This document shows, piece after piece, positions 743-63,715 of a DNA stretch of 64,000 bases (the stretch's first letter is position 1; every line of letters begins with the position of its first letter). The stretch is from the NCBI GenBank assembly GCA_043808705.1, contig JAZDEO010000013.1, positions 8,081 through 72,080 on the forward strand. Direction: 5' to 3'. The position numbers were made by a program, and so were the translations under genes. This stretch comes from an archaeon (GTDB taxonomy: Archaea; Nanobdellota; Nanobdellia; SCGC-AAA011-G17; GW2011-AR20). Below the pieces are notes generated by a model, which was not told the origin of the DNA, ran no database searches, and saw nothing but the letters and a program-made list of their open reading frames with translations.

Positions 743-1609
743 TCATAATATAATTAGATAAGCACCAAATAACATAACAAGAGTTGCAATGATTTTTTTA
801 GTTAAATTCTTCTCATGAAATAACTCCCCACCAAGCAAAATAACTATTATAACATAAGTTCTTCTGATGGTTTCTACTAATGTTACGTTTTGTATTAAGA
901 TAGCCTGATTCTGTAGCAGTTTTGCAACAAGGATAAAAGTAGCAGCAAAAAAGATTAAGACCCCAGAGGTTTTAAAACCCCTCATAATTCCATTAATTCC
1001 ATCATGTAATAAAAAGATTAGAATTATCATATAAACCATAAAAAAGGTATAACTTATGAAAGTTAAAGTGTAAACATCAACTAATTTTGTACTTAATAAG
1101 TATCTAGCTAATATCAAGGATAAAGCCATCAAAGCTAAAGACAAGAAAACATAATTTATATACTGGCGCTTAAAAATATTAGCAAAAGGTTTTAAAAAAC
1201 CCCCTTTTCTAATTTCTAAAATATAAATTCCTACAATCAACAAAAATATTCCTAACAATTGTAAATAACTTATTGTTTCACCCAAAATTATTACTGCAAA
1301 AAATAAAATAAAAACAGGCAAAAACACCATTAAAGAACTAGCTGAAGATACCTCCATATGTCTTATCGCCTTGGCAGTAAAGAATGTAGATAACCCAAAA
1401 AATAAAGACTCCAGAGCAATTAAAATCCAGATCCTTAAATCAAGATTAAAGTCAACAAGTCTTATGAATATTAAGGATAGTATAAACATAAATATAGACA
1501 GAACACAAGAAAACTCTATTGAATGTTGTTTAATCAGACTCTTCTTTTCAATTATGACAGCTAAAGCAGTAAAAATAGCAGAACCAAAAGCAAACAAGTA
1601 CCACTCCAT
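743..1609 (-). CDS. EamA/DMT-superfamily permease (≈10 TM)
   Basis: 288 aa, entirely hydrophobic helices in two repeated halves typical of drug/metabolite transporter (EamA) proteins. Confidence 0.55.
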   Translation of the reverse strand: MEWYLFAFGSAIFTALAVIIEKKSLIKQHSIEFSCVLSIFMFILSLIFIRLVDFNLDLRIWILIALESLFFGLSTFFTAKAIRHMEVSSASSLMVFLPVFILFFAVIILGETISYLQLLGIFLLIVGIYILEIRKGGFLKPFANIFKRQYINYVFLSLALMALSLILARYLLSTKLVDVYTLTFISYTFFMVYMIILIFLLHDGINGIMRGFKTSGVLIFFAATFILVAKLLQNQAILIQNVTLVETIRRTYVIIVILLGGELFHEKNLTKKIIATLVMLFGAYLIIL

Positions 1610-1684
1610 TAGATTAATAAAATTTTTATTTTATTTAAAGTTTTCCAATACCTTTTTAAATCTAAATTTTTTACAAAGGATAGA

Positions 1685-1772
1685 GGGCTCTTAGCTCAGC
1701 TTGGTAGATTTTATAGCCAAAAGCAACTGACTCTTAATCAGTAGGTCGCGGGTTCAAGTCCCGTAGAGCCCA
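1685..1772 (+). tRNA. tRNA-Lys (anticodon CTT) with putative 14-nt intron in D-arm (≈1709-1722)
   Basis: Acceptor stem GGGCTCT/AGAGCCC, discriminator A. Anticodon stem ACTGA/TCAGT with loop CTCTTAA, so anticodon CTT. T-arm GCGGG-TTCAAGT-CCCGT. D-stem GCTC pairs with GAGC only after removing TTTTATAGCCAAAA. TATA-like TTTAAATCT about 25-30 nt upstream. Confidence 0.8.
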
Positions 1773-1797
1773 TTTAATAATCAAGATTAAATAACTC

Positions 1798-2136
1798 ATG
1801 ATGCAAACCTTAAAGGATTGGATAGATAAACTAAAGAAATCAGAATCCTTAATAATTGTAGAAGGAAAAAAAGACAAAGAAGCCCTAAATAAGTTAGGAA
1901 TTTATAAAGTAGAAACCTTAGATGGAAGACCAATCTATAAATTAGTAGAAGATATTTCTTTAAAAACAAAAAAAGTTATTATCTTAACAGATCTTGATAA
2001 ACAAGGCAAAGTATTCTATCATCAAATAAAACATAATTTACAAAAAAAGAAAATCTTAGTAGAAGACGGTTTCAGATATTTTTTATTTAAAAAAACAAAA
2101 ATCTCGTTTATAGAATCAATCCATAAATTTGTTTGA
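1798..2136 (+). CDS. small Toprim-domain protein (COG1658-like)
   Basis: IIVEGKKDKEAL…VIILTDLDKQG: conserved E and DxD of the Toprim fold, ~110 aa archaeal family. Confidence 0.6.
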   Translation: MMQTLKDWIDKLKKSESLIIVEGKKDKEALNKLGIYKVETLDGRPIYKLVEDISLKTKKVIILTDLDKQGKVFYHQIKHNLQKKKILVEDGFRYFLFKKTKISFIESIHKFV

Positions 2137-3915
2137 TTATTCAACTGTAACAGACTTACTCAAGTTTCTTGGATGGTCTACATCATAACCTTTCAAATCA
2201 GCAATATAATAAGCTAATAATTGTAGAGGTATGACATTAATTATAGGCTCTAGTTCTTCAATAGTTTTAGGCACATATATAACATGATTCACTTTATTCT
2301 TTATTTCATTATCACCCTCATCAGCAATTGCTATTATCTTACCATTTCTAGCTTTTATCTCTTCTATATTACTTAAAATTTTGTAATAAACATCATTTTT
2401 ATTTGCTATTACAACAACAGGCATATCCTCATCTATTAAGGCTATAGGCCCATGTTTCATCTCAGCAGCAGGATAACCCTCTGCATGAATATAAGAGATT
2501 TCTTTTAATTTTAAAGCACCCTCTAAAGCAACAGGAAAATTTATCCCCCTACCTAAGAACAAAAAATTGTTTCTTTTATAATAAACATCTGCAATTTCTT
2601 TTATATTATTCTTATTTAAAATATCTTTAACAATATTAGGAATTTTTTGTATTTCTTCAATTATCCTATTATCTTTTTTAAAATACAAACTTAGAATATT
2701 TAAGGCAATTACTTGGCTTGTAAAAGCCTTTGTACTAGCAACCCCTATCTCAGGTCCAGCATGAAGATATATTCCCTGTCCAGATTCTCGGGCAATACTA
2801 CTCCCTACAACATTAACAATTCCTATTGTTTTAGCCCCCTTCTTCTTAGCCTCTCTCAAGGCAGCTAATGTATCTGCAGTTTCTCCAGATTGGCTAATTA
2901 CAATAACCAAATCATTCTCGTTTATTATTGGATTTCTGTATCTAAACTCAGAGGCGTAATCGACTTCAACAGGAATTTTACAATTCTTTTCTATAATATA
3001 TTTTCCTATTAAAGCAGCATGCCAAGAAGTTCCACAAGCAGTAATAATAATCCTTTTTAATTTAGTTATAAAATCTTTATCGAGATTAATACTTATTTTT
3101 ATTTCATCATCTTTAATTCTACCCCTTATAGTATTCATAATACTCTCAGGTTGTTCATTAATCTCTTTTAACATAAAATGTTTAAAACCTTTTTTTTCAA
3201 TTTCTTCTAAATTCCATTCTATTCTTTCAATATGCCTACAATTTATATTTGCATCTTTAAGATTAGATAATGAATAGCTATCAAAATTAATTTCTAAAAC
3301 ATCATAATCTTCTAAATAAATAACATCCTTAGTATACGATATAATACTAGAAACATCAGACGATATAAAATACCCTTTATCATTTATGCCTAATATCAAA
3401 GGACTTCCTTTTCTTGCAGCAATAATCTTATCTCCATTCTTATTTATAACTAACAAACCATAAGTTCCATCAACTTTTACTAAAGCTCTTTTAACAGCAG
3501 TTACTAAATCCCCCTCATAAAACTCTTCTATCAAATGAGCCAAAACTTCAGAATCAGTATAACTCTTAAATACATGTCCTTTGTTTATCAAAACCCCTTT
3601 TAAAACATCAAAATTTTCTATAATTCCGTTATGAACAATTGAAATATTATTCTCACAATCATTATGCGGATGAGCATTTATATCAGAAGGAACACCATGA
3701 GTACTCCATCTAGTATGACCTATACCTATATTTGAATATAATTCAGGAACATTAAAACCATCTATCTTACCTTTCTTCTTGAAGGTTTTAATTTCATTAT
3801 TAATTATTACTGAAATTCCAACACTGTCATAACCTCTATACTCTAATCTTTTTAGTCCATTCATTAATATAGGAACACAATTCTCTTTTCCAATATAACC
3901 AATAATTCCACACAT
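2137..3915 (-). CDS. glmS: glutamine--fructose-6-phosphate aminotransferase (isomerising)
   Basis: N-terminal MCGIIGY (Ntn Cys), two SIS domains, C-terminal …SKSVTVE; 592 aa. Confidence 0.95.
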   Translation of the reverse strand: MCGIIGYIGKENCVPILMNGLKRLEYRGYDSVGISVIINNEIKTFKKKGKIDGFNVPELYSNIGIGHTRWSTHGVPSDINAHPHNDCENNISIVHNGIIENFDVLKGVLINKGHVFKSYTDSEVLAHLIEEFYEGDLVTAVKRALVKVDGTYGLLVINKNGDKIIAARKGSPLILGINDKGYFISSDVSSIISYTKDVIYLEDYDVLEINFDSYSLSNLKDANINCRHIERIEWNLEEIEKKGFKHFMLKEINEQPESIMNTIRGRIKDDEIKISINLDKDFITKLKRIIITACGTSWHAALIGKYIIEKNCKIPVEVDYASEFRYRNPIINENDLVIVISQSGETADTLAALREAKKKGAKTIGIVNVVGSSIARESGQGIYLHAGPEIGVASTKAFTSQVIALNILSLYFKKDNRIIEEIQKIPNIVKDILNKNNIKEIADVYYKRNNFLFLGRGINFPVALEGALKLKEISYIHAEGYPAAEMKHGPIALIDEDMPVVVIANKNDVYYKILSNIEEIKARNGKIIAIADEGDNEIKNKVNHVIYVPKTIEELEPIINVIPLQLLAYYIADLKGYDVDHPRNLSKSVTVE

Positions 3916-3960
3916 AAAAATAAGGAATGATAAAAGTATTTAAATTTGTATCTAATGTAC

Positions 3961-5061
3961 TTAATAAATCTCATTAACAAATAATTTAGGATCTAGATTA
4001 GAGAGCATATTACTAATAATTTTTTCATCTTTAAACATCTCACTAACAGATAATCCATTAGTGTCTCTATAAATAAATTCAGCAACAATAGGGGAAACAC
4101 TTAAAATACAGATCAACCAATCTTTATTTTTTTCTAAATATTCTAGATCTCTGCCTGTTGTGTCAGTGGTTATAGCCTTTAGATTAACTCTCCTCATTCT
4201 ATCTTCAGCCTTAACACCTCTTTTTTCACTAGCCAAACAATGCGTAAAAAAACCATAAATTTCACTTACGCCATAATTATCTCTTAATATTGAAGCATTC
4301 TCTTCTAAAGTTCCTCCACTGTCAAAAATGTCATCAATAATAAGAGCTATCTTCCCGTTTATATCAGATCCTCTTATTTTATTAACATTTGATTTTCCAC
4401 CATCATCAAACATTGTTCTATTTTTGTCAGCATAAGCAATATCACATCCAAGTAAATCAGCAAACCTCTTAGCAGTTTTACTGCTACCTTGATCAGGGGC
4501 AACAACAACCAATTTTTCTCTAAAAATATTTTTTTTATAAAAATCCTTAAATAAAACATTCTTGATATACCAAACAAATAAAGGCATAGCATCTAAATTA
4601 TCTACAGATACATCAAAAAAACCCATTTGTTGAGCAGAATGCATATTTATGCTAGAAAATCCATTATATTTTCTACCTCCAGCCTTATCAAGCAAATCAG
4701 CTATCATTTTAGCATTAATTGCAACCCTTCCATCTTTCTTAGTATCCTGTCTTCCATCAAGAAAACTAACAAAAAACCTAAAATCATCACACTCACATCT
4801 CTTTAATGCATCCGCTGTCAATAATAAATCCCAATTACATTTTATTGGTTCATTGATAATGTAAGATTGAATAACAAACACACTATTTTTCCTTACATTT
4901 TGGCCCACTTGAACATATCTATTTCCATCGGGAAAACTTTTACACTCAATCTTTTCTAATGAAAAATCTATATCTTTATTTTTTAATATAGAAGAAACCC
5001 TTTCAGCAAAATCATAACTATACTCATTTGCTAATAAAACCACATCTTTTACATGATTCAT
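3961..5061 (-). CDS. prs: ribose-phosphate pyrophosphokinase (PRPP synthetase), long form with ~50 aa extra
   Basis: FPDGNRYVQV…VFVIQS, HSAQQMGFFDVSVDNL, VVVAPDQGS, IALIIDDIFDSGGTL; aligns along its length to class I Prs. Confidence 0.85.
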   Translation of the reverse strand: MNHVKDVVLLANEYSYDFAERVSSILKNKDIDFSLEKIECKSFPDGNRYVQVGQNVRKNSVFVIQSYIINEPIKCNWDLLLTADALKRCECDDFRFFVSFLDGRQDTKKDGRVAINAKMIADLLDKAGGRKYNGFSSINMHSAQQMGFFDVSVDNLDAMPLFVWYIKNVLFKDFYKKNIFREKLVVVAPDQGSSKTAKRFADLLGCDIAYADKNRTMFDDGGKSNVNKIRGSDINGKIALIIDDIFDSGGTLEENASILRDNYGVSEIYGFFTHCLASEKRGVKAEDRMRRVNLKAITTDTTGRDLEYLEKNKDWLICILSVSPIVAEFIYRDTNGLSVSEMFKDEKIISNMLSNLDPKLFVNEIY

Positions 5062-5118
5062 AAAAATAAATAAAAATTTAAAACTTTTAAAGCTTTACCT
5101 AGTGTAATATATTCATCA

Positions 5119-5394
5119 CTATAGTAAATCTTTTATCTTGTCAATATGCTCAGCAACCTTATTTCCAGTGTCTGTTAAAGCAATTGTTTTTATTCTTCCA
5201 TGCTTTTCAAAAACAACAAGCTTTGCTTTTTCCATTTCTTGCAATATCTTTACAGCATGAGAATAAGTACAATCAACTTCTTTTGCCAAAACACTTCCAT
5301 ATCTGTTTTTGCCACCCTTTCTTAGAGCTACTAAAATCATTGCTGGTTTCTTTCTAAAAAAAACTTCAAATATACCTGCTTTAGTTTTATCCAA
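5119..5394 (-). CDS. winged-helix DNA-binding protein (transcriptional regulator-like)
   Basis: 91 aa; helix-turn-helix plus wing pattern (SVLAKEVDCTYSHAVKILQEMEKAKLVVFEKHGRIKTIALT). Confidence 0.45.
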   Translation of the reverse strand: MDKTKAGIFEVFFRKKPAMILVALRKGGKNRYGSVLAKEVDCTYSHAVKILQEMEKAKLVVFEKHGRIKTIALTDTGNKVAEHIDKIKDLL

Positions 5395-5545
5395 TTTAAT
5401 AACCCCCTAATATTTTGACACCAATAATTTATCCATGATAATCAATAACTATTTAAATGTTTCTTTTTGAATATATATATTAAACAAAATACTTTTAAAT
5501 CTTACTATTTTTATTTTTTTAAAGAATTTTTAATGCTTATAAGGT

Positions 5546-7597
5546 CTATTGGCTGTTCTTCTCTAATTTTAATAAAGCATCCCACTCTTTATCAACATGT
5601 TCCTGTACTTTATCAAGAATCTTTTTATTTTCATCTTTTAGGAGATGTTTAAATCTTCCTTGAAGTTTTAAAAATTCAATTATAGGTAGTCTATTTTCAT
5701 TCTTATAATTTATAGTATATTTATTATTTTCAACCTCATATAAAGGCCAGAAATTAGTCTTAACAGCCAATTCAGCTATTTTAACAGCTAAATTTGTATC
5801 AAATCTCCATCCTAAAGTACAAGGTTGTAATACATTTATGAATGCAGGACCATTAGCATTAAAGGCCTTCTCAGCTTTATTATAGAGATCTATTAAATTA
5901 TTTAAAGAAGCTTGAGCAACATAAGGAATATTATGAGCAACAACAATTTTAGTTATATCTTTTCTAAATTTCTCTTTGCCTTGATGGAACTTTCCTACTG
6001 TTTCTGTTGTAGTATCAGCTCCAAAAGATGTTGCAGAACTTCTTTGAACTCCCGTATTATGAACTATAATCCCATTAGCAATAAAGTTATGTTCACCCTC
6101 AACTCTTAAATCTAATGTTGGTTCAACGCCTAACTGTTTAATATTTCTTACTTTTTCTATACTAAAATATTTATTTTCTATTAAGAAATTTTTGTATTTA
6201 TACTGATTTTTATATTTTTTAGTGTTCCATATTCCAAGTTTACTAAAGCACATATACCAATATTGTGTATCTTTTAATAATTTTCTATAAACCACAACTT
6301 TACCTTTTTTTATTTTTATATTATGTAATTTTCCAACTCTATAATTCATAGTTTGTAATAATAATCTTAATCTTTTAACTAGATCATAACTTGAAGAGGG
6401 ATATCTCCAACTTTCACCCATTTTATATCCATCAGATAACATTAACCCCTCTAAAAATTCTTCTTTTTCTTTCTTAGTTAATGTAAATATCCATGAAGGT
6501 ATTGTTTTATTTTTAGAACCTTTACCTAAACCCAGAGAATCAATGAACTTTACAACATTAATAGATCTTATATACACCTCATTCTTTGATTCTACCGGTT
6601 TAATTTTAAATACCTTCTTTATAAGATTGATTAGTACCTTTCTAGCTTTATCTTTTTCAGGTATAGCAAAAGCAACTTCTGCTTTTTCTGTTCTAGTCCA
6701 ACCATCACCTACCCACAAACCCAATAATTTCATTAAATCTTCATTTGATTTTTTAGGTATTTTTACTTTGTTAATTTTATTTACTTTATAATCACCTTTC
6801 TTAGAAATATTTATTGGTTCAAAAACGTATTTTTTACCTTCTTTCAAATCTTTTTGAACAACTAAATCATCCCCCATCTTAATATTCTCTAATCTTTTCC
6901 AAATAAACTCATTAGTATTACTACGTCCATTATGTTTTAAAACTAAAAAGGGATGATTTCCTGTAGCCTTAATATCGTGATGTAAGGTTGATAAACTATA
7001 AACTCTTTTTTTTCCATTATCAAAAACACCATCACATTTTTTTAAAACTAAATCATAATTTTTTTGATCAAAAGCATATACCATTTCACCTTTCTTTATT
7101 TCAGTTATTAATTTTAATCCTTTTTCAGTCAAAATTAGACTGTCCAAAGTTAAACAGTTCATATAAGCTTCATTATTATACAAAACATAAACAAATTTAT
7201 GTCCTCTTTCTAAAGCACCACTTAATGCCTGTAACCCAATATCATATGTGCCACCATCACCACCAAACGCAACAAAATTAATATCTTTTTTTATCTTATT
7301 TTTTTTCTTTAACACATTAAAAGCAGTTTCAACACCAGATATAGTTGAAGCTGCATTTTCAAATGCATTATGTATCCAAGGAACATTCCAGGAACTAAAA
7401 GGATATATGCTAGATGTAACCTCCAAGCACCCAGTAGCACAAGAAACAACAACAGGTTTTTTAGAAGTACTTAAAACAGTTCTAACTATTTGAGGAATAC
7501 CACAACCACTACATGTTCTATGACCAGAAACAAACTTTTTATTTACACTCTGATCATTTGCTAGTTCAATTATATTCATTTTAATTCTTAATATCAA
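5546..7597 (-). CDS. porB: pyruvate:ferredoxin oxidoreductase beta subunit (TPP-binding) interrupted by an intein
   Basis: Exteins: CSGCG…, [10 protein letters not shown], …NNEAYMN|TGVQRSS… (conserved Y-M-N-T-G motif is split). Spliced extein 316 aa, consistent with typical PorB size. Confidence 0.9.
6056..7156 (-). mobile_element. intein (367 aa) with LAGLIDADG homing-endonuclease domain inside porB
   Basis: Starts CLTLDS (block A), ends …GIIVHN followed by +1 Thr; internal [10 protein letters not shown] and [20 protein letters not shown] blocks; in-frame. Confidence 0.85.
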
Positions 7598-22348: not shown

Positions 22349-24409
22349 ATGAAGAAAATAATAATCTTAACCGAAAAACCAACAGCATCTTTAAAGATAG
22401 CTCAGGCTTTATCATCTAAAATAACCAAGAAGAAATACAAGAAAGCCCCTTATTATGAGTTAGAATTTAATGATAAAACAATAACAATATTATGTGCAGT
22501 AGGTCATCTTTACAATTTAGCTGAAAAAGAAAAAAATCATTGGACTTATCCTATATTTGATTATGTATGGAAAGAATCATATTCTGTTCAAAAATCTGCA
22601 GCATTCTCAAAAGTTTATTTAGACGCAATAAAAAAACTAGATGACAAAGAAGCAGAAGTTTATATGGCCACAGATAAAGATCTAGAGGGAGAGATTTTAG
22701 GTTATAACATAATAAGATTTGCATTAAAAAGAAATGATGCAAAGAGAATGGAATTTTCAACTATGACCGCTAAAGATTTAAAGCATTCATTTGAAAATCC
22801 AAAAGAACATTTAGATTTTCCATTAATTAATTCAGGAGAGACAAGACACATTCTTGATTTTTTGTGGGGTCTTAATTTAAGTAGAGCTCTGACATCATCA
22901 ATAAGAAAATCAGGTTTCTTTAAAATATTAAGCTCTGGCCGAGTTCAAGGACCAGCTTTAAAGATACTAACAGAAAGAGAACTTGAGATAAGAAAATTTG
23001 TTTCAAGAAAATATTGGGAATTAGAAGCTATAAACACACTTACATTATATCACAAAAACGGTAAATTCTTTGATAAACAAGAAGCAGATGAAAAATATGA
23101 AAAAATAAAAGACGAGAAAATAGCATCTGTAATTAATATAGAAAAAAAAGAGTTTTATCAAGATCCACCAAATCCTTTTGATTTAACTTCACTACAACTT
23201 GAATCATATAAGTTATTTGGAATATCACCTAAAGAAACATTATCAATAGCTCAAGAACTTTATATTAATGCCTACATATCATATCCGAGAACCTCATCGA
23301 ATATACTACCAGAGTCATTAAACTATAAGGAGATTATTACAAATATTTCAAATCAGAAACAATATGAAAAATTATCTAAAGAATTACTTTCAAAAAAAAT
23401 ATTAAAGCCAAATAACGGTAACAAAACAGATCCAGCTCATCCAGCTTTATATCCTACAGGAGAAATTCCTTCAAAACTTAATGAAAAGGAAAAAAAGATT
23501 TATGATCTAATTGTTAAAAGAACCTTAGCTTCATTTGCAGATAAAGCAAAAAGAGAAACAGTTATCATAGAAACAGACATTAAAGAAGAACCCTTTATCG
23601 CAAAGGGTTCAAGAACTACAGAGAAAGGATGGCACTCTTTCTATGAACCTTATATTAAATTAGAAGAGGTAGAAATGCCTCCCTTAAAAATAAATGATAA
23701 AATAAAATTAAAGAAAATAAGCAAATTAGAAAAAGAAACAACCCCTCCTAAAAGATATACAGAAGCTTCAATAATAAAAGAACTAGAATCAAGAAATTTA
23801 GGAACAAAAGCAACAAGAGCTTCTATAATAGAATCTCTCTATCAAAGAAACTATGTAAAAGAAAAATCAATTGAAGTTACAGATTTGGGATTAAAAACAG
23901 TTGAGGTTTTAGAAAAATATGCTTCAGAAATTTTAGATGAGAACTTAACAAGACATTTTGAAGAGGAAATGGATCAAATAAGAGAGGAAAAAAAGAAAGA
24001 AGAAGAGGTTATAGAAGAAGCCAAAGTAACCTTAAAAGAGATTCTAGATCATTTTAAGAAAAATGAAAAGAAAATAGGAGAAGAACTTTCAGTAGCAAAT
24101 AAAGAAACCCAAAATCAAGCATCTATAATAGGAAAATGCCCTAACTGTGAAGGAAATTTAAAGATATTATATTCAAAAAAGTTCAAATCATATTTTTTAG
24201 CTTGTGACAAATATCCAGAATGTAAAACAACATTTTCTCTACCATCAGGATTACCTAAGCCAACAGATAATTTCTGTGAAGAATGTAAATACCCCTTAGT
24301 TAAAATAATAAGAAGCGGCAAAAAACCATTTGATTATTGTTATAATAAATCATGTCCAAAAAGGTTAAGATGGATTAAAGAACAACAATCCCAGAATCAT
24401 CAATCTTAA
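22349..24409 (+). CDS. topA: type IA DNA topoisomerase (Topo I/III-like) with C-terminal zinc ribbons
   Basis: Toprim N-terminus (IIILTEKP…DKDLEGE), catalytic core, and C-terminal CPNCEG…CDKYPECK…CEECKYP zinc fingers. Confidence 0.85.
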   Translation: MKKIIILTEKPTASLKIAQALSSKITKKKYKKAPYYELEFNDKTITILCAVGHLYNLAEKEKNHWTYPIFDYVWKESYSVQKSAAFSKVYLDAIKKLDDKEAEVYMATDKDLEGEILGYNIIRFALKRNDAKRMEFSTMTAKDLKHSFENPKEHLDFPLINSGETRHILDFLWGLNLSRALTSSIRKSGFFKILSSGRVQGPALKILTERELEIRKFVSRKYWELEAINTLTLYHKNGKFFDKQEADEKYEKIKDEKIASVINIEKKEFYQDPPNPFDLTSLQLESYKLFGISPKETLSIAQELYINAYISYPRTSSNILPESLNYKEIITNISNQKQYEKLSKELLSKKILKPNNGNKTDPAHPALYPTGEIPSKLNEKEKKIYDLIVKRTLASFADKAKRETVIIETDIKEEPFIAKGSRTTEKGWHSFYEPYIKLEEVEMPPLKINDKIKLKKISKLEKETTPPKRYTEASIIKELESRNLGTKATRASIIESLYQRNYVKEKSIEVTDLGLKTVEVLEKYASEILDENLTRHFEEEMDQIREEKKKEEEVIEEAKVTLKEILDHFKKNEKKIGEELSVANKETQNQASIIGKCPNCEGNLKILYSKKFKSYFLACDKYPECKTTFSLPSGLPKPTDNFCEECKYPLVKIIRSGKKPFDYCYNKSCPKRLRWIKEQQSQNHQS

Positions 24410-34470: not shown

Positions 34471-37083
34471 ATGGGAATCAATATTTGGGAACTTTTCCCT
34501 AAAAAAGAAATTAAAATTAGTGATTTAAAAGGAAAAGTTTTAGCAGTAGACGCTAGTCCTGTTATCTATCAGTTTTTAGCTTCTATTAGGCAACGTGATG
34601 GAACACTTTTAATGGATTCTAAAGGAGAAATAACCAGCCATCTTATGGGTCTAAGTACTAGAATAACCAAATTAATGTCTGAAGGATTAAAATTGATATT
34701 CTGTTTTGATGGTCGTCCACCAGATCTAAAGATCCATGAAAGAGAAGAAAGAGAATATAGAAAGAGAATAGCAGAAAAAAAGCTAAAACAAGCTCAGAAA
34801 GAAGGAGATATAGAATCTATGTTAAAATATTCAAAACAAACAATCAGATTAAATGATAAAATTATTTCTGAATCAAAAGAGTTATTAAAAGCTTTAGGAA
34901 TCCCAGTAATTCAAGCAGTTTCAGAAGCTGAAGCACAATGCGCTTTTATTGCAGAGCAAGGAGATGCATGGGGTGTTGTTAGTCAAGATGCAGATACATT
35001 ATTATTCAGAGCACCAAGGTTAATTAGAAATCTTACTATTTCACAAAGAAAGAGATTACCTTCAGGTTCAGTAATACAAACTAAACCAGAGTTAATAGAA
35101 TTACAACAAACACTAAAACAACTTAAAATTAATCAAGATAGGTTAATTGCCTTAGGAATTCTTGTGGGAAGTGTTGATCATAACGAACCTACAATAATTA
35201 AAAATAGAGGCATAATACAAGTTAATCCTATAGGAGAATGCCCAATTAGTTCCCACTTAGAGGTTCCATGTTTCGATAAAAAAACAAAAAAAATTGTGTT
35301 TAAAAGAGTAAAAGGATTTATCAAACACAAGATCAATGAACCATTATATGAGATTACAACAGTATATAATAGGAAAGTAAAAGTAACAAAGTCTCATAGT
35401 CTTTTTATCAAAAATAGTGATAATAATATTACTGTGGTTAAAACCACAGATCTAAAAAAAGGAGATAAATTAGTTATACCTTTTAAAATACCATTTCAAA
35501 ATAAAAAAATAGATAAAATAAATCTAGCCCAAGAATTATGGAAACATAGAGATAAAATAAAGAGATTAACTTATTGTGATGGAAAAAATATACAAAAAAT
35601 AATCAAAGATAGATTATCAATTAAAAAAAGCAGATTATTTAATAAGAGATATATCTTAACTAAGTTTGGTCTAAAAAGATTAAAAGAATTAAGAATAAAC
35701 AAAGAAGTTACGACAATGAAGACACCATTAAGCTCTAACACACTTTATGGGTGGGAAAATGGATTAATCTCTCCAACAGAAACTAAGTTTAAAGAATATT
35801 TAAATTTTCTAGGATCAAATTTAAAAGAGTTTAATATAAATAACAATTGTATCAAAAGAATTAGAAATTCAGTTTTTGAGGAAAATATTTCTCCACGGAT
35901 GAACTACAAAAACAAATATAGACAAACAATATTATTTAAAACATTATCTAAAAAAGAAGTTAAGCTATTATCTCAGAAAGATTTTATTTATGGTAGAACA
36001 AGAGATACTAATCAAGTGTCATCAATATTAAAGATAACCTCAGAATTAATGAGGATTATTGGTTACTTTCTTGCTGAAGGCCATCTTAATGGTAACTATA
36101 GGATAAATTTTAGTTTTGCATTACCTTCTATAGGGCATGATGATTTTTGTGTAAATGACACAGTTTATTGCATAAAAAAAGTATTTAACATTAAACCAAA
36201 AGTTTACCACGAGAAATCTACAAGACACATTTGTTTAGATAATTGTGTGATTCATGATTTTTTTGCCTATGTTCTAGAATTGGAAAAACAAGGTTCAAAA
36301 AACAAAAAAATACCTTCTTTAATATTTAATGTAAGTCAAAAATTTCAGTTGGAGTTTTTAAAAGGACTTTTTTTAGGTGATGGAAGTATAGATAAAAACC
36401 ATATATCCTTTAATACAGCAAGTTATGACATGGCTATAGGTCTTTCTTACATCTTTTTGCAACAAGGTATTATTTCTTCCACTAGTTTTCAAAATAGAAA
36501 AAATAATAATATGAAACTTTTACATGTTTGTGGAAAGAACCAAATAACAAATATTAAAAAGATATGGGAAAAACATAATAAAGCTAAACGTCTAATTGAT
36601 TATTGTAAAAGACCACTAAAACAAAAACAAATTATTGATATAGAAGGAGATCTAGGATATGTTAAAATTAAATCTATTGTTAAAGTAAAACCCTTTAATA
36701 GCGAGGTATATGACTTTTCAGTAGACGGTGAAAATTTTATCGCCGGTTTTGGAGGGGTGTGTTGTCATAATACAGATTATAATATTGGTGGAGTAAGAAA
36801 AATTGGACCTAAGATAGGTTTAAAATTAGTACAACAAAACAAAGATCTCGATAAAATATTTGAAGAGGTCAAGGCAGAATTTGACTGGAAACAAATTTAT
36901 AACACTTTTATATCAATGCCTGTTACAAAAGATTATCAGTTAAAATGGAATCCAATAGATGAAGACAAAATAAAAGAAATTCTAATTGAAAAACATGATT
37001 TTAATAAAGAGAGAGTTGAAAAAACACTACAAAACTTAAGCACCAGGGATAAGAAACAATCATCCCTATCTGATTGGTCATAA
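34471..37083 (+). CDS. fen: flap endonuclease FEN-1 interrupted by a 534-aa intein
   Basis: N-terminal MGINIWELFPKKEI…AVDASPVIYQFLASIRQRDGTLLMDSKGEITSHLMGL (strong FEN-1 match). Exteins …ILVG | TDYNIGGVRKIGPKIG (H3TH motif split). Spliced extein 336 aa. Confidence 0.9.
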   Translation: MGINIWELFPKKEIKISDLKGKVLAVDASPVIYQFLASIRQRDGTLLMDSKGEITSHLMGLSTRITKLMSEGLKLIFCFDGRPPDLKIHEREEREYRKRIAEKKLKQAQKEGDIESMLKYSKQTIRLNDKIISESKELLKALGIPVIQAVSEAEAQCAFIAEQGDAWGVVSQDADTLLFRAPRLIRNLTISQRKRLPSGSVIQTKPELIELQQTLKQLKINQDRLIALGILVGSVDHNEPTIIKNRGIIQVNPIGECPISSHLEVPCFDKKTKKIVFKRVKGFIKHKINEPLYEITTVYNRKVKVTKSHSLFIKNSDNNITVVKTTDLKKGDKLVIPFKIPFQNKKIDKINLAQELWKHRDKIKRLTYCDGKNIQKIIKDRLSIKKSRLFNKRYILTKFGLKRLKELRINKEVTTMKTPLSSNTLYGWENGLISPTETKFKEYLNFLGSNLKEFNINNNCIKRIRNSVFEENISPRMNYKNKYRQTILFKTLSKKEVKLLSQKDFIYGRTRDTNQVSSILKITSELMRIIGYFLAEGHLNGNYRINFSFALPSIGHDDFCVNDTVYCIKKVFNIKPKVYHEKSTRHICLDNCVIHDFFAYVLELEKQGSKNKKIPSLIFNVSQKFQLEFLKGLFLGDGSIDKNHISFNTASYDMAIGLSYIFLQQGIISSTSFQNRKNNNMKLLHVCGKNQITNIKKIWEKHNKAKRLIDYCKRPLKQKQIIDIEGDLGYVKIKSIVKVKPFNSEVYDFSVDGENFIAGFGGVCCHNTDYNIGGVRKIGPKIGLKLVQQNKDLDKIFEEVKAEFDWKQIYNTFISMPVTKDYQLKWNPIDEDKIKEILIEKHDFNKERVEKTLQNLSTRDKKQSSLSDWS
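35170..36771 (+). mobile_element. intein with LAGLIDADG homing endonuclease inside fen
   Basis: Begins at Ser (SVDHN…), ends …GGVCCHN + Thr(+1); LAGLIDADG blocks IIGYFLAEGHLNG and FLKGLFLGDGSID; in-frame. Confidence 0.8.
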
Positions 37084-37797
37084 TCTCTTTTCAATCTTCT
37101 TAATATCTTTCTCTATAACCTTCTCTACTATCTTAACATCCTTCTCTAAAGTTCTTTCAACCTTTTTAATATTTTCTTTTATGATATTATAATCTCTTTT
37201 TATAGGTTTTTCATAAAATATAAAAGCCTTAATTATTCTAGGAATTCTTTCTAAAGGTCTTATTAATCTTGCAATAAAACTAGTTCTAGTTAATTTAGTG
37301 CCCTCTTCAATCTCTTTAAATACCTTACCTCCTTGTTCTAATTCTCTAAGCTCCCTAATTATTTTTTCTTCCTTGACTAATTTTTCTATCTCAACACCAG
37401 TATGCACTATCTTTTGTCCTTCACCTATTTCTGCACTTATCCTAAATAAAGCATAGACTTCTTCAACAACTCTAAATAATAAGAAGAATGGAAACACAGC
37501 AATAATATCAATCCAGTACTTTTTCAAAAAAGTTTTAAAGTTTCTAACTCTGTAATACTTAAAACACAAATCAATAAAAAATACAGCAATAATAAAATAA
37601 TCAGCAAGTATGACATAAAAACCATATTTCTCTAAAAAAGTTTTATAAAAAAACTCCCCCGATATTAAAAATAATAGTAAAACAACAATATAAGGAACTA
37701 ATTTATCAACTATTATTTCTACTTTATGAAGCCACGGTTTCATGTGTTTTATAAATAATTCTTGATTTATAAACATTTTCAAAAGGTTTATATACAA
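37078..37797 (-). CDS. membrane protein with voltage-sensor-like features (3 TM + Arg-periodic helix) and charged coiled-coil tail; hypothetical
   Basis: YWIDIIAVFPFFLLFRVV (S3-like), RLIRPLERIPRIIK (R every 3rd residue), no pore/selectivity-filter motif. Confidence 0.35.
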   Translation of the reverse strand: MYINLLKMFINQELFIKHMKPWLHKVEIIVDKLVPYIVVLLLFLISGEFFYKTFLEKYGFYVILADYFIIAVFFIDLCFKYYRVRNFKTFLKKYWIDIIAVFPFFLLFRVVEEVYALFRISAEIGEGQKIVHTGVEIEKLVKEEKIIRELRELEQGGKVFKEIEEGTKLTRTSFIARLIRPLERIPRIIKAFIFYEKPIKRDYNIIKENIKKVERTLEKDVKIVEKVIEKDIKKIEKRL

Positions 37798-41429: not shown

Positions 41430-43853
41430 CTAATTAGACTTAATCTCAAATATACTCTTTTTTAATCTTATAGCAGAAGGAGTATCTCCCCCATGCCATG
41501 TTAATTTAGGTCTTGTTTTCATAGGATATATCCTCTCAGAGTTATCATCTAAAATAATTGCAGAACCTTTTATTTTAGGTAAATTATTCAAGTAACTTAA
41601 AATATCTCCTGTCAAATAACTTTGGGTTATTGAATTTAGAGCCTCAACATCAATCTTAGCAGTAACTCTAAAACTTACAACAATATCACTCTGAGTTAAA
41701 GCATCTTTAGCCAATTCACCAGGCTGTTGTGTTGCCATTACTAGACTTATTCCAGGTTGTCTCCCCTCTCTTAAAATCTGGATTAAAGCATCACTTGCAG
41801 GACTCTTTCCCTCTCGGGGGAGGAACTCGTGACATTCGTCTATTAAAATCCAAACAAGAGGCATATCACTCTTTTTAGTTTCAAGTTCAAAATAATGCTG
41901 CCCTTCTTCTATCAAATTCATTTCTTCTAATTTTCTAGCATCCATTCTTTCTCTTAACAGTTTACTTCCTAATAACCCTATAACCAGGCATTTAATATTC
42001 CAATCAGTATAACAACTAATATCTAATATTGAAACTTCTCCAGCCTTAATAATGTCTTTAATTTTAGTGCTATCCTTATCAAATAAACCCCATAATTTTG
42101 AAGAATTAAATCTGTTTTCAACAGCATTTTTTACATTAGCATCAGATTTCTTATCTTTTAAAAGTTCTTTAATTATGTCATCAACATCATAATCCTTTCC
42201 AGTATCTTTTAAATTTCCAATTACCCTTTCAATTAAAACACCCTTGTCATCCATTAAACCAATACTAAAAACATTACACCAATCTAAAGAAGTTAATTCA
42301 GAGGGTTTTATTGAAAAATTAAAGTCTGTAGGAATATTTTTCTCTTTATATTCCTGAAACTTTCCCTTAGGAGTATAAACTTTAACATTCAAGCCTTGAG
42401 GTTTTAATCCATATCTCTTTAATTCATCCTCCTGTTTTAAATTAGGATATTTCATACTCCAAAATATTCCCATAGTATCTAAAATTAAAACAGCCAGATT
42501 CTTTTTAACATCATCATCCAATCTCGTTACTTCTTCAGCTATTACAGATAAAAAATAACTTTTTCCAGAATTATGCGAAATAATACCATTAGCTACAAAA
42601 GAATGATTTTTGTTTACAGATAGATCATAAACTTCTTTTATATCTTTTATTTTTTGGATATCTTTTATTTTTCTACAAACTAAATTATTAGACAAATAAA
42701 ATGTTTTTTTTCTTCTAAACCCATCTATTTTTTTATTATTCAATCTTTCCTGCTTAAAATTATTGAAGAAGCCTATTTTTTTAAAATTATTATTTGAAGC
42801 ATTATCTGTGATAAACAGTCTATAATTTAAGTACATTTTATTATTACATCTAGCATTTTTTTCTCTTATAACAGATTCTATATTAAAATGACTTAACAAA
42901 AGTTGTAAATCCTCTAAAAATTCTTTCGATTTTGAGGAATAATCAATATGACCCCCCTTACTTATATAACCATCACATGAAAATAAAGCTGAAATAAAAT
43001 TTGCTTTAAATGTATTTGAACTTTCCCAAACAATCTTCGGGATTCTAATTATACCCGATTTATTTCCTAAAGGAACACCTAGTTTATTTAATCTATCAAT
43101 CACAGGAGCATGAAGTGATTGAATAACCTCACAATTACAATCATTTCTTTTATATCTTTTTGAATGTAAACCAAATTCTTCTTCGAGATCTTTTTTTGCT
43201 AAATCTAAGACTTCAAGACAATCATTATATATTCTTAATCTACTCTTTGTTCCATTATACCAAGCACCTCTTCCATCTTTCCATCTACCTCTCCTTTTAT
43301 TAATTGTTCCATCAGATAAAACAAAACCCAATAGTCTAGCTATTCTTAAACTTTCTTTATCATTTTTTACTTCTGGTAACTCAGTAGGCATAATTATTTT
43401 ATCATTAATTTTTAATTGCTGAGCCATCCTCCAAAATATATATTTGCCATAATTCATGAGTAAAGGATGTTCATTTGTTAAAATTATTGATCTTCCATCA
43501 TAGAATTCTAATTTTAATAAGTGTTCTTTTATATCATATTTTAAAAGTTCTGCATTTTCCCATTCAAATTTTTTATTTTTTTTATCAAATGAAAATACTT
43601 TATCTTCTTTCTCATTAAAGTCCTTTATATTTTTATATCCCTTATCTGTAAAAACTTTAGTCTCTCCACTAAGACACCCCCTTTTTCCTGAAATCAAAAT
43701 TATATGAGAACTGTTAACATCTAAGTAAATATCACTTCCAAGAGAAGTTGTCTGCCCCATCTTAACATAACTCTTTCCAATAAAAATAAGGCCTTTGTTT
43801 CCATATTTCTTCATATCAACTTCATTTCTTCCAATAATTATGTTATGAACCAT
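41430..43853 (-). CDS. HerA/FtsK-superfamily DUF87-like ATPase interrupted by an intein in the P-loop
   Basis: Exteins …HIILISGKRG | SGKSYFLSVIAEE give Walker A GKRGSGKS. Walker B VWILIDECHEF, MATQQPGEL. Spliced extein 438 aa. Confidence 0.75.
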   Translation of the reverse strand: MVHNIIIGRNEVDMKKYGNKGLIFIGKSYVKMGQTTSLGSDIYLDVNSSHIILISGKRGCLSGETKVFTDKGYKNIKDFNEKEDKVFSFDKKNKKFEWENAELLKYDIKEHLLKLEFYDGRSIILTNEHPLLMNYGKYIFWRMAQQLKINDKIIMPTELPEVKNDKESLRIARLLGFVLSDGTINKRRGRWKDGRGAWYNGTKSRLRIYNDCLEVLDLAKKDLEEEFGLHSKRYKRNDCNCEVIQSLHAPVIDRLNKLGVPLGNKSGIIRIPKIVWESSNTFKANFISALFSCDGYISKGGHIDYSSKSKEFLEDLQLLLSHFNIESVIREKNARCNNKMYLNYRLFITDNASNNNFKKIGFFNNFKQERLNNKKIDGFRRKKTFYLSNNLVCRKIKDIQKIKDIKEVYDLSVNKNHSFVANGIISHNSGKSYFLSVIAEEVTRLDDDVKKNLAVLILDTMGIFWSMKYPNLKQEDELKRYGLKPQGLNVKVYTPKGKFQEYKEKNIPTDFNFSIKPSELTSLDWCNVFSIGLMDDKGVLIERVIGNLKDTGKDYDVDDIIKELLKDKKSDANVKNAVENRFNSSKLWGLFDKDSTKIKDIIKAGEVSILDISCYTDWNIKCLVIGLLGSKLLRERMDARKLEEMNLIEEGQHYFELETKKSDMPLVWILIDECHEFLPREGKSPASDALIQILREGRQPGISLVMATQQPGELAKDALTQSDIVVSFRVTAKIDVEALNSITQSYLTGDILSYLNNLPKIKGSAIILDDNSERIYPMKTRPKLTWHGGDTPSAIRLKKSIFEIKSN
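42570..43676 (-). mobile_element. intein (369 aa) with LAGLIDADG endonuclease in HerA-like ATPase P-loop
   Basis: CLSGETKVFT (block A) … ANGIISHN + Ser(+1); LAGLIDADG blocks LLGFVLSDGTIN, FISALFSCDGYIS. Confidence 0.85.
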
Positions 43854-60595: not shown

Positions 60596-63500
60596 ATGAC
60601 AGAACAAAAAAATGCAAATGAACTAGCAAAAGAATTTAGATCAGTAAGTGTTTCAGACTTTTTTGCCAGAAACAGACATCTTCTTGGCTATGATAATCCA
60701 ATAAAGGCATTGTTAACAGTAATTAAAGAGGGTGTTGATAATTCTGTTGATGCATGTGAGGAAGCTGGAATTCTTCCAGATGTTTATATAGAAATAAAAC
60801 AATTAAATGAAACAAGATTTATTATTATTCTAGAGGATAATGGCCCGGGAATTGTTAAGAAACATATTCCAAATGTTTTTGCATCTTTGCTTTATGGAAC
60901 AAAATTCCATAGGTTAAGACAAAGTAGAGGAGTCCAAGGTATTGGTATTTCTTCTGCTGTTTTATATGCTCAATTAACAACAGCCAAGCCAACAAAGATA
61001 TGGTCTAAAATAGATGGAAATAATAAAGCATTTTATTATGAGCTTCATATTAACACTCAAAAAAATGAGCCAGAAATAGTTAAAGAAGAAGATATTGATT
61101 GGCCTAATAAAAAAACAGGCATTAAAATAGAACTAGAAATAGAAGCAAAATACCAGAAAGGTCAGCAATCAGTAGATCAATATTTAAAACAGACAGCAAT
61201 AGCAAACCCCCATCTTCAAATTACTTATATAAGTCCACTTGGTGAAAAATTAGAATTTCCTAGAGCAACAAAAGAGCTTCCAAAAGAGCCTAAAAGAATA
61301 AGTCCTCATCCTTATGGTATTGAACTGGGCATTTTAATGAAAATGCTTAGTGATACAAAACATGGAAAATTATCAAGTTTTTTGCAAAATGAATTCTGTA
61401 GGGTTTCTCCAAATGTTTCAAAAGAGATTTGTGAAAAAGCAAGCCTTCCTGAAAATTCCAGACCCTCAAGAATAGCAAGGCAGGAAGCTGAAAAATTATT
61501 TAAAGCAATTCAGGAAACAAAAATAATGGCTCCTCCTACAGATTGTTTAAGCCCTATAGGTCAAGAGCTTTTAGAAAAAGGTCTTAAAAAAGAGATTAAT
61601 GCTGATTTTTATGCATCAGTAACAAGAAGCCCCTCTGTTTATAGAGGTAATCCATTCCAGATTGAATGTTGTACAGGAGATACAAAATTAATATCAGAAG
61701 AAGGCGGTATCTTAAATATAAAAGATTTTGTAGAAAATAAGATTAACAAAAAAGTTTTTGCTATGGATTCTAATCTAAAAATTAGACCTGTAAAAGTAAT
61801 TGCTTGGCACAAATTTAAAAATAAACATAAAATACTTAAAATAAAAACTAAATCTGGTAGAAGTTTAAAAATTACTGACAATAATCAACTACCAATTATT
61901 GAAAATGGAGAAATTATATGGAAAGAATCTAAAGATGTAATGGCTGGTGATTTTATCGCTTCTCCTAGAAAGTATAATATAAAAGGCTATGTGCCTAATA
62001 TTTTGGATTTATTTAAAGAAAATGAAAAAGATATTCAAATTTGTGACAAAGAAATTATTATTTTAGTTTTAGACCTATTAAAAAATAAGTTTAGTTCTTT
62101 AAAAAAATCCTCAAAGAAACTGAATATTGATTATGATTATTTTAAAGCAATGTATAGAAAAGGGAATTCTACAAAACCTTCTTTAGATTTATTTAAAAGA
62201 ATGTGTACTTTAGCAGAATTAAAGGATAATTTTATTTATAACATAAAAAAGATTAGGTTTGTTAATAATAGATTTAAGAACCCTAAATCAATAAACATCC
62301 CAAAAATAAATGAAGACCTGTTTTATGTTTTAGGATTATTAAATTCAGATGGTTTCATTTCTAAGAAGTTAGTATCTTTTGTTAATAAGGATGAATATTT
62401 ACATAGTCTATATTCTTTAAAGATTTATCAACTATTTGGTTTAAAAACTAAAAGATATAATATTAATTCTAGTATTTACAATAAGACTTTATCTGAAGTT
62501 CTTAATAGACTTGAAAAAATAATTTGTAAACTTCCAGATTATTTAGTAATAGCTTGGTTGAAAGGATTTGTTGATGGAGATGGTTGGGTTAATTTAAAAG
62601 ATGGAGTAATAAAAAGAATAGGTATTACTACAGCAAAAGAAGAGAAAGCAGAATTTACACAATTTTTACTATTAAGATTAGGTATAATCTCCAAAATTGA
62701 AAGAAAAGGGGTTTCTAATTGTCAAGGTAATATAAATGGAAGAATTATTAAAACATTAAAACCACAGTATAATATCATTATCAGAGATTTTGAAAATATT
62801 AACAAATTTTCTTTATTAATATCTTTTAGGCAATTAAATAGATCACATTTATTATCTAAAGGATTGATTAAACAACTTAAACACTTAAAAGACATTGTAC
62901 CTTTAGGCAAACTCTTAAAAAGATTTAGAGAAGAAAACAATTTATATCAATATGAATTAGGTTTTTCTGATGATAATATAAGGAGTATTGAGAAAGGCAA
63001 TTATCATATTGGACGAGGAAATCTGCAGAAGATTATTGAACTTCAAAATTATTCTAGTGACTCCTTTGAAAAATTGAAAAATTTAGCTTATTCAGATGTA
63101 TTATGGGATAAGATTACTGATATTGAGTTAGTAGAAAATGAAAATTATGTTTATGATTTAACTACAGAAGTTGGTAATTTTGTTGCAGACAATATTATAA
63201 TGCATAACTGTGCTATAGCCTATGGAGGAGACATAGAAAAAGAGGATGTAATAAGATTATTGAGATTTGCAAATAGAGTTCCTTTACTTTATCAGAAAGG
63301 GGCATGTGCTGTTACAAGAGCAGTAGGTGAAACAAATTGGAAACAATATGGATTACAACAATCAGGAAAAAATCTACCTGTAGGTCCAATTGTCTTAGTT
63401 GTTCATATAGCATCAGTATGGGTCCCATTCACATCAGAGGCTAAAGAAGCAATAGCTCATTATCCTGAAATAATCAAGGAAATAAAACTTGCTTTACAGG

Positions 63501-63715
63501 AATGTGGAAGACAATTAGGAATTTACATTAGAAAACATATCAAAGCTAAAGAACAAAAAGAAAAAGCAAATTTGTTTGAAAAATACATTCCTGAATTAGC
63601 ATCATCACTTTCAAATTTAACAGGCGACAAAAAAGATAAGATAGAGGAAGATCTATTAAAGATATTAAAGAAAGGAATTCCAGAAATAGAAGAAAATGGA
63701 CAAATCGAAAAATAA
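60596..63715 (+). CDS. top6B: DNA topoisomerase VI subunit B interrupted by a 514-aa intein
   Basis: GHKL/Bergerat ATPase (VDNSVDACEEAG…ILEDNGPGI…LLYGTKFH). Exteins …GNPFQIE | CAIAYGGDIE. Spliced extein 525 aa. Confidence 0.9.
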   Translation: MTEQKNANELAKEFRSVSVSDFFARNRHLLGYDNPIKALLTVIKEGVDNSVDACEEAGILPDVYIEIKQLNETRFIIILEDNGPGIVKKHIPNVFASLLYGTKFHRLRQSRGVQGIGISSAVLYAQLTTAKPTKIWSKIDGNNKAFYYELHINTQKNEPEIVKEEDIDWPNKKTGIKIELEIEAKYQKGQQSVDQYLKQTAIANPHLQITYISPLGEKLEFPRATKELPKEPKRISPHPYGIELGILMKMLSDTKHGKLSSFLQNEFCRVSPNVSKEICEKASLPENSRPSRIARQEAEKLFKAIQETKIMAPPTDCLSPIGQELLEKGLKKEINADFYASVTRSPSVYRGNPFQIECCTGDTKLISEEGGILNIKDFVENKINKKVFAMDSNLKIRPVKVIAWHKFKNKHKILKIKTKSGRSLKITDNNQLPIIENGEIIWKESKDVMAGDFIASPRKYNIKGYVPNILDLFKENEKDIQICDKEIIILVLDLLKNKFSSLKKSSKKLNIDYDYFKAMYRKGNSTKPSLDLFKRMCTLAELKDNFIYNIKKIRFVNNRFKNPKSINIPKINEDLFYVLGLLNSDGFISKKLVSFVNKDEYLHSLYSLKIYQLFGLKTKRYNINSSIYNKTLSEVLNRLEKIICKLPDYLVIAWLKGFVDGDGWVNLKDGVIKRIGITTAKEEKAEFTQFLLLRLGIISKIERKGVSNCQGNINGRIIKTLKPQYNIIIRDFENINKFSLLISFRQLNRSHLLSKGLIKQLKHLKDIVPLGKLLKRFREENNLYQYELGFSDDNIRSIEKGNYHIGRGNLQKIIELQNYSSDSFEKLKNLAYSDVLWDKITDIELVENENYVYDLTTEVGNFVADNIIMHNCAIAYGGDIEKEDVIRLLRFANRVPLLYQKGACAVTRAVGETNWKQYGLQQSGKNLPVGPIVLVVHIASVWVPFTSEAKEAIAHYPEIIKEIKLALQECGRQLGIYIRKHIKAKEQKEKANLFEKYIPELASSLSNLTGDKKDKIEEDLLKILKKGIPEIEENGQIEK
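61667..63208 (+). mobile_element. intein with LAGLIDADG endonuclease in top6B
   Basis: CCTGDTKLISEEG (block A) … DNIIMHN + Cys(+1); LAGLIDADG blocks LGLLNSDGFIS, WLKGFVDGDGWVN. Confidence 0.85.

Follow-up and report, generated by a model that had tools for sequence, protein, structure and literature searches.

Among inteins of known structure, the most relevant comparison for the element described here is PI-PkoII (also named PI-TkoII; Protein Data Bank (PDB) entry 2cw7), the 537-residue intein 2 of the T. kodakarensis PolB, in which a splicing Hint domain is combined with a LAGLIDADG homing endonuclease and extra DNA-binding domains. Accessory domains resembling a helix-turn-helix (HTH) are known in the endonuclease-bearing inteins PI-TkoII and TliVMA (PMC8966425). 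The closest solved Hint domains are those of the TFIIB mini-inteins from M. vulcanius (5o9i) and M. jannaschii (5o9j), and a topA intein allele, known from Halobacteria and Methanotorris, as well as a gyrB intein allele have been described (Soucy et al., 2014, PMC4071816). Here we analyse an intein in the flap endonuclease FEN-1, encoded in a 64,000-nucleotide stretch of archaeal DNA (contig JAZDEO010000013.1, positions 8,081 to 72,080), which we call the window and to which all coordinates refer. The gene very probably encodes a FEN-1 precursor into which a canonical class 1 intein, with a LAGLIDADG homing endonuclease and an HTH domain, is inserted.

The FEN-1 precursor and the anatomy of its intein

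The host protein is readily recognized as an archaeal FEN-1. The NCBIfam model TIGR03674 (fen_arch) matches the precursor in two stretches flanking the insert with 373.6 bits (cutoff 351.95), and Pfam places XPG_N at residues 12-98, XPG_I at 143-234 and 5_3_exonuc at 771-803. Removal of residues 234-767 in silico leaves a 336-residue FEN-1, of which residues 1-335 align with residues 1-337 of P. furiosus FEN-1 (1b43; E 5.7e-93) and do so gap-free across the LVG-TDYN junction. The acidic active-site residues D27, D80, E152, E154, D173 and D175, all of them located in the N-extein, and the Asp of GTDYN are identical to those of 1b43, and the C-terminal tail is intact, with QSSLSDW aligned to QSTLESW. 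The C-extein thus has the metal-binding Asp of the GTDYN and helix-three-turn-helix (H3TH) motif near its start and the PCNA-binding-type tail QSSLSDWS at its end. A first-pass annotation of the window had assigned the N-terminal 233 and the C-terminal 103 residues to FEN-1, and the profile score, the Pfam domains and the gap-free alignment bear this assignment out.

Intein-free homologues read IL[VI]G/TD[YF]N at the insertion point (a slash marks the site of insertion here and below). With Gly233 before it and the Thr-Asp of GTDYN after it, the insert separates one active-site Asp and the H3TH motif from the other carboxylates. Therefore the precursor is predicted to be inactive, and FEN-1 activity is predicted to depend on splicing.

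The insert starts with SVDHNEP and ends with CCHN, after which TDYN follows. It is matched by Pfam Intein_splicing with 70-72 bits (cutoff 35.8) and by TIGR01443 (intein_Cterm) with 18.6-18.8 bits (cutoff 15.6). Nine distinct full-length orthologues on independent contigs are available for comparison; one of them, P0007, was recovered with an unchanged allele on 8 contigs from several samples. In eight aligned orthologues Gly-1, Ser1 (S234), T306, H309, the VYDFSVDGENFIAG block, His766, Asn767, Thr768, E536 and D637 are all invariant; in intein numbering the invariant catalytic residues are S1, T73/H76, D515, H533, N534 and T+1. The ninth allele, L032, has the same junctions, and Ser1 is also kept in both L032 and L033. 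The Thr and His of block B are invariant in a 17-sequence family alignment too, and most of the catalytic residues are invariant across the wider intein family. Judged by this residue set (Ser1, block B T-x-x-H, a His-Asn end and Thr+1), the insert belongs to the canonical class 1 inteins. The first-pass annotation had proposed precisely a Ser1, His-Asn and Thr+1 intein at ILVG/TDYN and had named the conservation of the splice junctions among homologues as one way to refute it; the junction residues proved to be shared by all orthologues. Its second suggestion, to see whether the insert models as a Hint fold, led to the same answer, as described below.

A search of PDB sequences with the insert (phmmer) retrieved PI-PkoII at 3.5e-23 together with VMA inteins, and the Methanocaldococcus TFIIB mini-inteins 5o9i and 5o9j at 7e-17 and 3e-15. 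An AlphaFold (AF2) model of the intein only, built from the 17-sequence alignment, reached a mean predicted local distance difference test (pLDDT) of 88.9 and a predicted template modelling score (pTM) of 0.84, and has the Hint fold. The best Foldseek match of this model in the PDB is again PI-PkoII (4.6e-27, template modelling (TM) score 0.63), followed by TliVMA, PI-PfuI, PhoVMA and PI-SceI; the top matches are full-length inteins only, and the TFIIB, PolII and RadA mini-inteins match the Hint part. AF2 applied to the whole 870-residue precursor with 8 sequences only gave a pLDDT of 56.8, with values below 35 in the Hint regions. PI-PkoII is therefore the best full-length match both by structure and by sequence, and it is similar to the FEN-1 intein in size and in its combination of domains. 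However, it resides in PolB, its accessory domains are arranged otherwise, and only 17% of residues are identical in the structural alignment. The TFIIB mini-inteins are closer in the Hint domain (32-33% identity) and share with the FEN-1 intein the same block A (VDYSEPIIIKEKGEIKVVKIGE) and the same blocks F and G (ENFIAGFGG..HN), although the solved constructs are without an endonuclease and their host is a transcription factor.

The endonuclease is of the two-motif LAGLIDADG type. Pfam LAGLIDADG_3 scores 50-51 bits on the insert (cutoff 22.5), and both LAGLIDADG blocks reported in the first-pass annotation could be located; their acidic residues and glycines are invariant family-wide, and a conserved Lys and Pro are invariant as well. 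The model of this region shows the pseudo-dimeric alpha-beta-beta-alpha-beta-beta-alpha fold, for which Foldseek returned I-DmoI and I-Tsp061I with TM scores (by target) of 0.68-0.73 and also the endonuclease fold of PI-SceI. The HTH domain that precedes it is a diverged copy: HTH_3 stays below threshold on the window's intein (E 0.03) but is matched in 14 of 18 aligned family inteins, with a best E of 1.3e-08 and a conserved motif SQPTIS-WE-G-P. The short helical segment that follows the endonuclease may serve as an accessory domain as well, judging by its likeness to those described previously (PMC8966425).

Splicing and DNA cleavage are predicted from this anatomy, from the modelled fold and from the conservation of catalytic residues. 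Ser1 would undergo an N-O acyl shift, the resulting ester would be attacked by Thr+1 in a transesterification, and the terminal Asn534 would cyclise with the assistance of the penultimate His533. An O-N shift would then make the Gly233-Thr peptide bond, and the products would be the 336-residue FEN-1 and the free 534-residue intein. The excised intein, or else the precursor, would cut intein-free FEN-1 genes at ...CTTGTGGGA/ACAGATTATAAT... with the help of the HTH domain, and recombinational repair would then copy the intein into the cut allele. The coordinates of all parts are collected in Table 1.

Table 1. Parts of the intein-bearing FEN-1 gene, in window coordinates.
Feature	Position	Strand	Basis or remark
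Precursor open reading frame	34471..37083	+	single uninterrupted frame, 870 residues
N-extein: FEN-1 residues 1-233, XPG_N and XPG_I, end ...GILVG	34471..35169	+	Pfam, TIGR03674, gap-free alignment to 1b43
Intein, 534 residues, protein residues 234-767, Ser1...His-Asn	35170..36771	+	profile, PDB sequence, orthologue alignment, fold matches
N-terminal half of the Hint splicing domain, intein residues 1-117	35170..35520	+	alignment with PI-PkoII and TFIIB mini-intein; beta strands, pLDDT 88-95
Block A, SVDHNEPTII; Ser1 codon 35170-35172	within 35170..35520	+	
Block B, T-K-S-H; Thr codon 35386-35388, His codon 35395-35397	within 35170..35520	+	
Helical linker and diverged Xre/Cro-type HTH accessory domain, intein residues 118-287	35521..36030	+	HTH_3, helical model
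HTH core, ...LSSNTLYGWENGLISPTETKFKEYLNFLG	~35731-35832	+	
Two-motif LAGLIDADG homing endonuclease domain, intein residues 288-455	36031..36534	+	LAGLIDADG_3, conserved acids, fold matches
LAGLIDADG motif 1, IIGYFLAEGH, residues 529-538, putative catalytic Glu536	36055-36084	+	
LAGLIDADG motif 2, FLKGLFLGDGS, residues 629-639, putative catalytic Asp637	36355-36387	+	
Short helical segment between endonuclease and C-terminal Hint half, intein residues 456-489	36535..36636	+	model helices 456-480
C-terminal half of the Hint domain, intein residues 490-534; blocks F and G, VYDFSVDGENFIAGFGGVCCHN	36637..36771	+	invariant VYDFSVD...HN; dN/dS 0.04
Terminal Asn codon	36769-36771	+	
C-extein: FEN-1 residues 768-870 and stop codon; starts with Thr+1 (36772-36774)	36772..37083	+	Pfam, 1b43 alignment

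Transfer between FEN-1 lineages and selection on the endonuclease

The phylogenies of the intein and of its host do not agree. In the extein tree P0001-P0006, P0008 and the intein-free P0025 form a clade with 99% support that leaves P0007 outside. P0025 is the sister of P0005 (100% support, ~71% identity), and the P0007 extein groups with two alleles that have no intein, L022 (100%) and P0029 (96%). The intein tree, rooted by other members of the family, unites P0001-P0007 in a clade with 100% support from which P0008 is excluded. The two trees are incompatible at 99-100% support, and it is therefore well supported that the intein has passed horizontally from one FEN-1 lineage to another at least once. 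Both lineages have relatives with empty sites; the evidence for transfer is limited to the topological conflict. An opportunity for such transfer between hosts may be seen in JGI sample 3300025317 (Ga0209541), where two intein-bearing FEN-1 alleles, one from each host clade, occur together (L032 at 1505-4108 and L029 at 3001-5619). The hosts are putatively Woesearchaeota, as judged from the orthologue L001 and from L022, a relative that lacks the intein.

One could argue that the element is a decaying or domesticated intein, which splices for the sake of FEN-1, has lost homing and is inherited vertically with occasional loss. There are indeed signs of long residence: the intein and the exteins are equal in GC content at third codon positions (0.174 and 0.167), and synonymous sites are saturated in both parts (proportion of synonymous differences 0.6-0.8). 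The two intein-free sister alleles could likewise be losses and not uninvaded sites. All domains of the intein are under purifying selection, with ratios of nonsynonymous to synonymous substitution rates (dN/dS) of 0.10-0.15 for the whole intein, 0.08-0.15 for the endonuclease and 0.04 for the C-terminal Hint half, and in the case of the endonuclease this could reflect a structural role in splicing. Such a role has reportedly been raised for TFIIB inteins, in the title of a 2017 paper by Iwai and colleagues. However, the dN/dS of the endonuclease together with the invariance of its LAGLIDADG acids, Lys and Pro speaks against decay, and vertical descent with loss cannot yield a tree conflict supported at 99-100%. 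Thus it is not likely that homing has been lost. By these sequence comparisons the element is long resident and conserved, and it probably is still a functional homing intein.

The empty sites themselves show a peculiarity. In the two intein-free FEN-1 alleles that are closest to the intein-bearing ones, L022 (989-1990) and P0025, position -2 is polar (ILSG/TDYN and ILNG/TDYN); the natural empty site of L022 reads ...TTAAGCGGA/ACAGATTATAAT. All nine intein-bearing alleles have [IM]LVG, and a polar N, K or T at -2 is found in only 3 of 89 intein-free representatives. It could be that the polar residue reflects immunity of the homing site or selection on the splice context, in a sample of two alleles.

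The intein lineage and a possible origin from TopA

The N-terminal block of the intein had been called atypical in the first-pass annotation, with the hedge that the insert might represent a diverged intein or some other Hint-like element. The generic profiles do miss block A: Pfam aligns from profile position 28 and TIGR01445 from position 40, the latter scoring 23.6-24.0 bits against a cutoff of 24.5. Nevertheless, the block is normal within its own lineage. In the alignment with the TFIIB mini-intein VDYSEPIIIKEKGEIKVVKIGE stands opposite VDHNEPTIIKNRGIIQVNPIGE, and a common start SV[DA]x[DN]E(P) and a common end VYDFSVD..ENF..G.GG.C[CA]HN are found in inteins of TopA, GyrB and phosphoglucomutase (PGM). 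These relatives were sought in 185,579 species genomes and, by an exhaustive HMMER search, in 1.84 billion representatives; word-indexed homologue searches missed those in TopA and GyrB, which the genome-contig scan and the exhaustive scan found. The lineage is homologous along its whole length, the middle HTH domain included. On this comparison the SVD-x-N-EP start is a mark of the lineage, poorly captured by generic profiles, and does not point to a different element, so the hedge falls away.

It is accordingly very improbable that the insert works by a non-canonical mechanism, be it as a bacterial intein-like sequence, as a Hint of the Hedgehog type or as an intein of class 2 or 3. The only encouragement for such a reading is the failure of generic profiles at block A. 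It is contradicted by the match of the model to true inteins over the full length, by the alignment of block A with TFIIB mini-inteins and by the same start in many TopA, GyrB and PGM inteins, and the complete, invariant class 1 residue set rules out bacterial intein-like, Hedgehog Hint and class 3 elements.

The members of the lineage reside in several host proteins. TopA inteins are found at A/TD[YEP]D.EGE in DPANN archaea and bacteria of the candidate phyla radiation, GyrB inteins at IIM/TDADVDG in cyanobacteria, proteobacteria, Chloroflexi, a Methanobacteriota metagenome-assembled genome (MAG) and a haloarchaeon, and PGM inteins at TA/SHNP. The GyrB and PGM inteins share 25-35% full-length identity with the FEN-1 intein, together with Ser1, the HTH_3 domain and the C[CA]HN end, and all three sit directly before a catalytic residue. 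They differ from it in their hosts; in addition, Ser takes the +1 position in the PGM inteins, whose target sequence is dissimilar, and the GyrB inteins form a separate clade with 100% support. The FEN-1, PGM and DPANN TopA inteins form a clade of 99%. Five members of the PGM family (P0020, P0033, P0036, P0037 and P0046) carry the same-lineage inteins directly before the active-site serine (TA/SHNP). The GyrB inteins of Kamptonema and of one further representative (L014 2479-4131, L019 6013-7665; P0168) end in ...GG[VL]AAKN/TDAD, with Lys in place of the penultimate His of the usual ...C[CA]HN, which would be either a variant block G or the mark of a decaying intein.

The nearest relatives of the FEN-1 intein are the DPANN TopA inteins L002 (Pacearchaeota) and L003 (Nanoarchaeota), which interrupt the TOPRIM motif A/TDYD-x-EGE and reach 36-37% full-length identity to it, compared with 32-35% for PGM inteins. 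They share with it the order Hint, HTH, LAGLIDADG and Hint, the Ser1, the start SVDYNEPT, the VYDFSVDGENFIAG-GG-CCHN end and Thr+1/Asp+2/Tyr+3; the host protein and the fold context differ (TOPRIM instead of the H3TH and active-site region). The resemblance extends to the DNA of the insertion site, where 16 of 20 bases are equal between TopA (TCGTGGCC/ACAGATTATGAT) and FEN-1 (TTGTGGGA/ACAGATTATAAT). The L003 TopA site reads ...ATCGTGGCC/ACAGATTATGAT and the reconstructed empty FEN-1 site of the window GGAATTCTTGTGGGA/ACAGATTATAATATTGGT. With the FEN-1 intein removed from the window, ~125,000 positions were compared, counting both strands. At three lengths of comparison no other position matched the L003 TopA site as well as the FEN-1 site did, and against the L002 TopA site the FEN-1 site shared the top rank. 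The window's own TopA gene (22349-24409, +) has no intein at YMA/TDKDLEGE, the site at which the closest relatives of the FEN-1 intein reside in related DPANN genomes, and this site is a poorer match than the FEN-1 site.

This circumstantial evidence suggests that an ectopic jump from TopA to FEN-1 is plausible. A possible but tentative scenario is that a TopA TOPRIM intein at A/TDYD moved to G/TDYN of FEN-1 by way of the ~16 of 20 shared bases and then spread horizontally among Woesearchaeota, and that its strong conservation could mean a role beneficial to the host, for example conditional splicing that gates FEN-1. Ectopic intein invasion is considered rare (Soucy et al., 2014, PMC4071816), and several of our own observations weigh against such a history. 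Branching inside the clade of FEN-1, PGM and TopA inteins is weak (FEN-1 with PGM only 51%), and TopA as a donor is unsupported by the tree; all trees were built by neighbour-joining only. The match had already been seen when the site-similarity test was designed, and the test extends over 62 kb of a single genome; the PGM inteins sit at a dissimilar site, so a jump needs no site similarity. As to the spread, viral contigs scanned for the FEN-1 intein contained no copy and hence offer no candidate vector. The nonsynonymous divergence of the intein (dN 0.19-0.21) is about half that of the exteins (0.34-0.64), which we considered as a sign of recent spread; this was dropped given the synonymous saturation of both parts, as the lower divergence may be constraint. 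Because of the same saturation the transfers are undatable. If the jump from TopA were demonstrated, or a regulatory role of the intein, the case would gain in interest. It is a concrete and testable example of how inteins gain new host proteins, as the closest relatives are found in an unrelated enzyme, ahead of identical codons for Thr-Asp-Tyr.

Rarity of FEN-1 inteins and other inteins of the window

The statement of the first-pass annotation that FEN-1 inteins are uncommon is borne out. Searches of ~5.8 billion clusters returned 8 full-length clusters of FEN-1 with the intein and one fragment, and the exhaustive HMMER scan, in which the representatives were clustered at 50%, returned one full-length cluster and one fragment; its remaining strong matches are intein-free FEN-1 proteins (~340 residues) or inteins in another host. 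The ninth full-length allele, L032, came from a metagenome scan and is 72.5% identical to the window's protein.

It is exceedingly unlikely that this gene arose from chimeric assembly of a MAG or from a free-standing LAGLIDADG gene fused in frame with FEN-1 fragments, even though the identical protein in the NCBI record comes from a MAG and is named only 'LAGLIDADG family homing endonuclease', for the reading frame is continuous, excision restores FEN-1 exactly, and the junctions are the same in all nine orthologues, which come from independent contigs and samples, with the PolB-FEN-1 neighbourhood kept between the window and the P0007 contigs. The public annotation is corrected by our reading, since the label covers the whole FEN-1 precursor and makes the MAG seem to be without FEN-1.

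Another intein was found in P0086, a 696-residue archaeal-type FEN-1. Like the window's intein, this element of ~350 residues has a FEN-1 host, is inserted at an active-site acidic motif (MGVP/CVQAPGEGEAQ) and carries a LAGLIDADG endonuclease. However, the site is different, the junction residues are Cys1/Cys+1, and the lineage is unrelated (60 bits with the family hidden Markov model (HMM) versus 705). Therefore at least two insertion sites in FEN-1 exist in public data.

Our search of the literature found no report of a FEN-1 intein. In the main text of the survey of Novikova et al. (2016, PMC4760082), FEN-1 is not named with the archaeal proteins that bear inteins most often, and flap nucleases are mentioned there only as conserved parts of the replisome. 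As an intein host FEN-1 thus seems to be very rare and previously unreported; the mechanism itself is well known. InBase is not known to hold a FEN-1 entry. The replication and repair proteins in which inteins occur would gain FEN-1 as a further member. The understanding of the intein mechanism is left unchanged by this case; the endonuclease could prove to be a meganuclease of new specificity, and inteins with Ser1 and Thr+1 have some appeal for protein engineering.

The window contains three further inteins, so that four are present in 64 kb, which is a high density. They are located in a thiamine pyrophosphate (TPP)-dependent enzyme (5546-7597, -) at YMN/C...HN/TGVQ, in HerA (41430-43853, -) inside the Walker A motif at GKRG/C...HN/SGKS, and in topoisomerase VI subunit B (60596-63715, +) at QIEC/C...HN/CAIA. 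All three are Cys1 LAGLIDADG inteins, and they were rejected as relatives of the FEN-1 intein, as their domain scores with the family HMM are 3-66 bits versus 705. Downstream of the FEN-1 gene, an open reading frame of 239 residues on the opposite strand (37078-37797, -) overlaps its last 6 bases (37078-37083), and the two converge tail to tail with no spacer.

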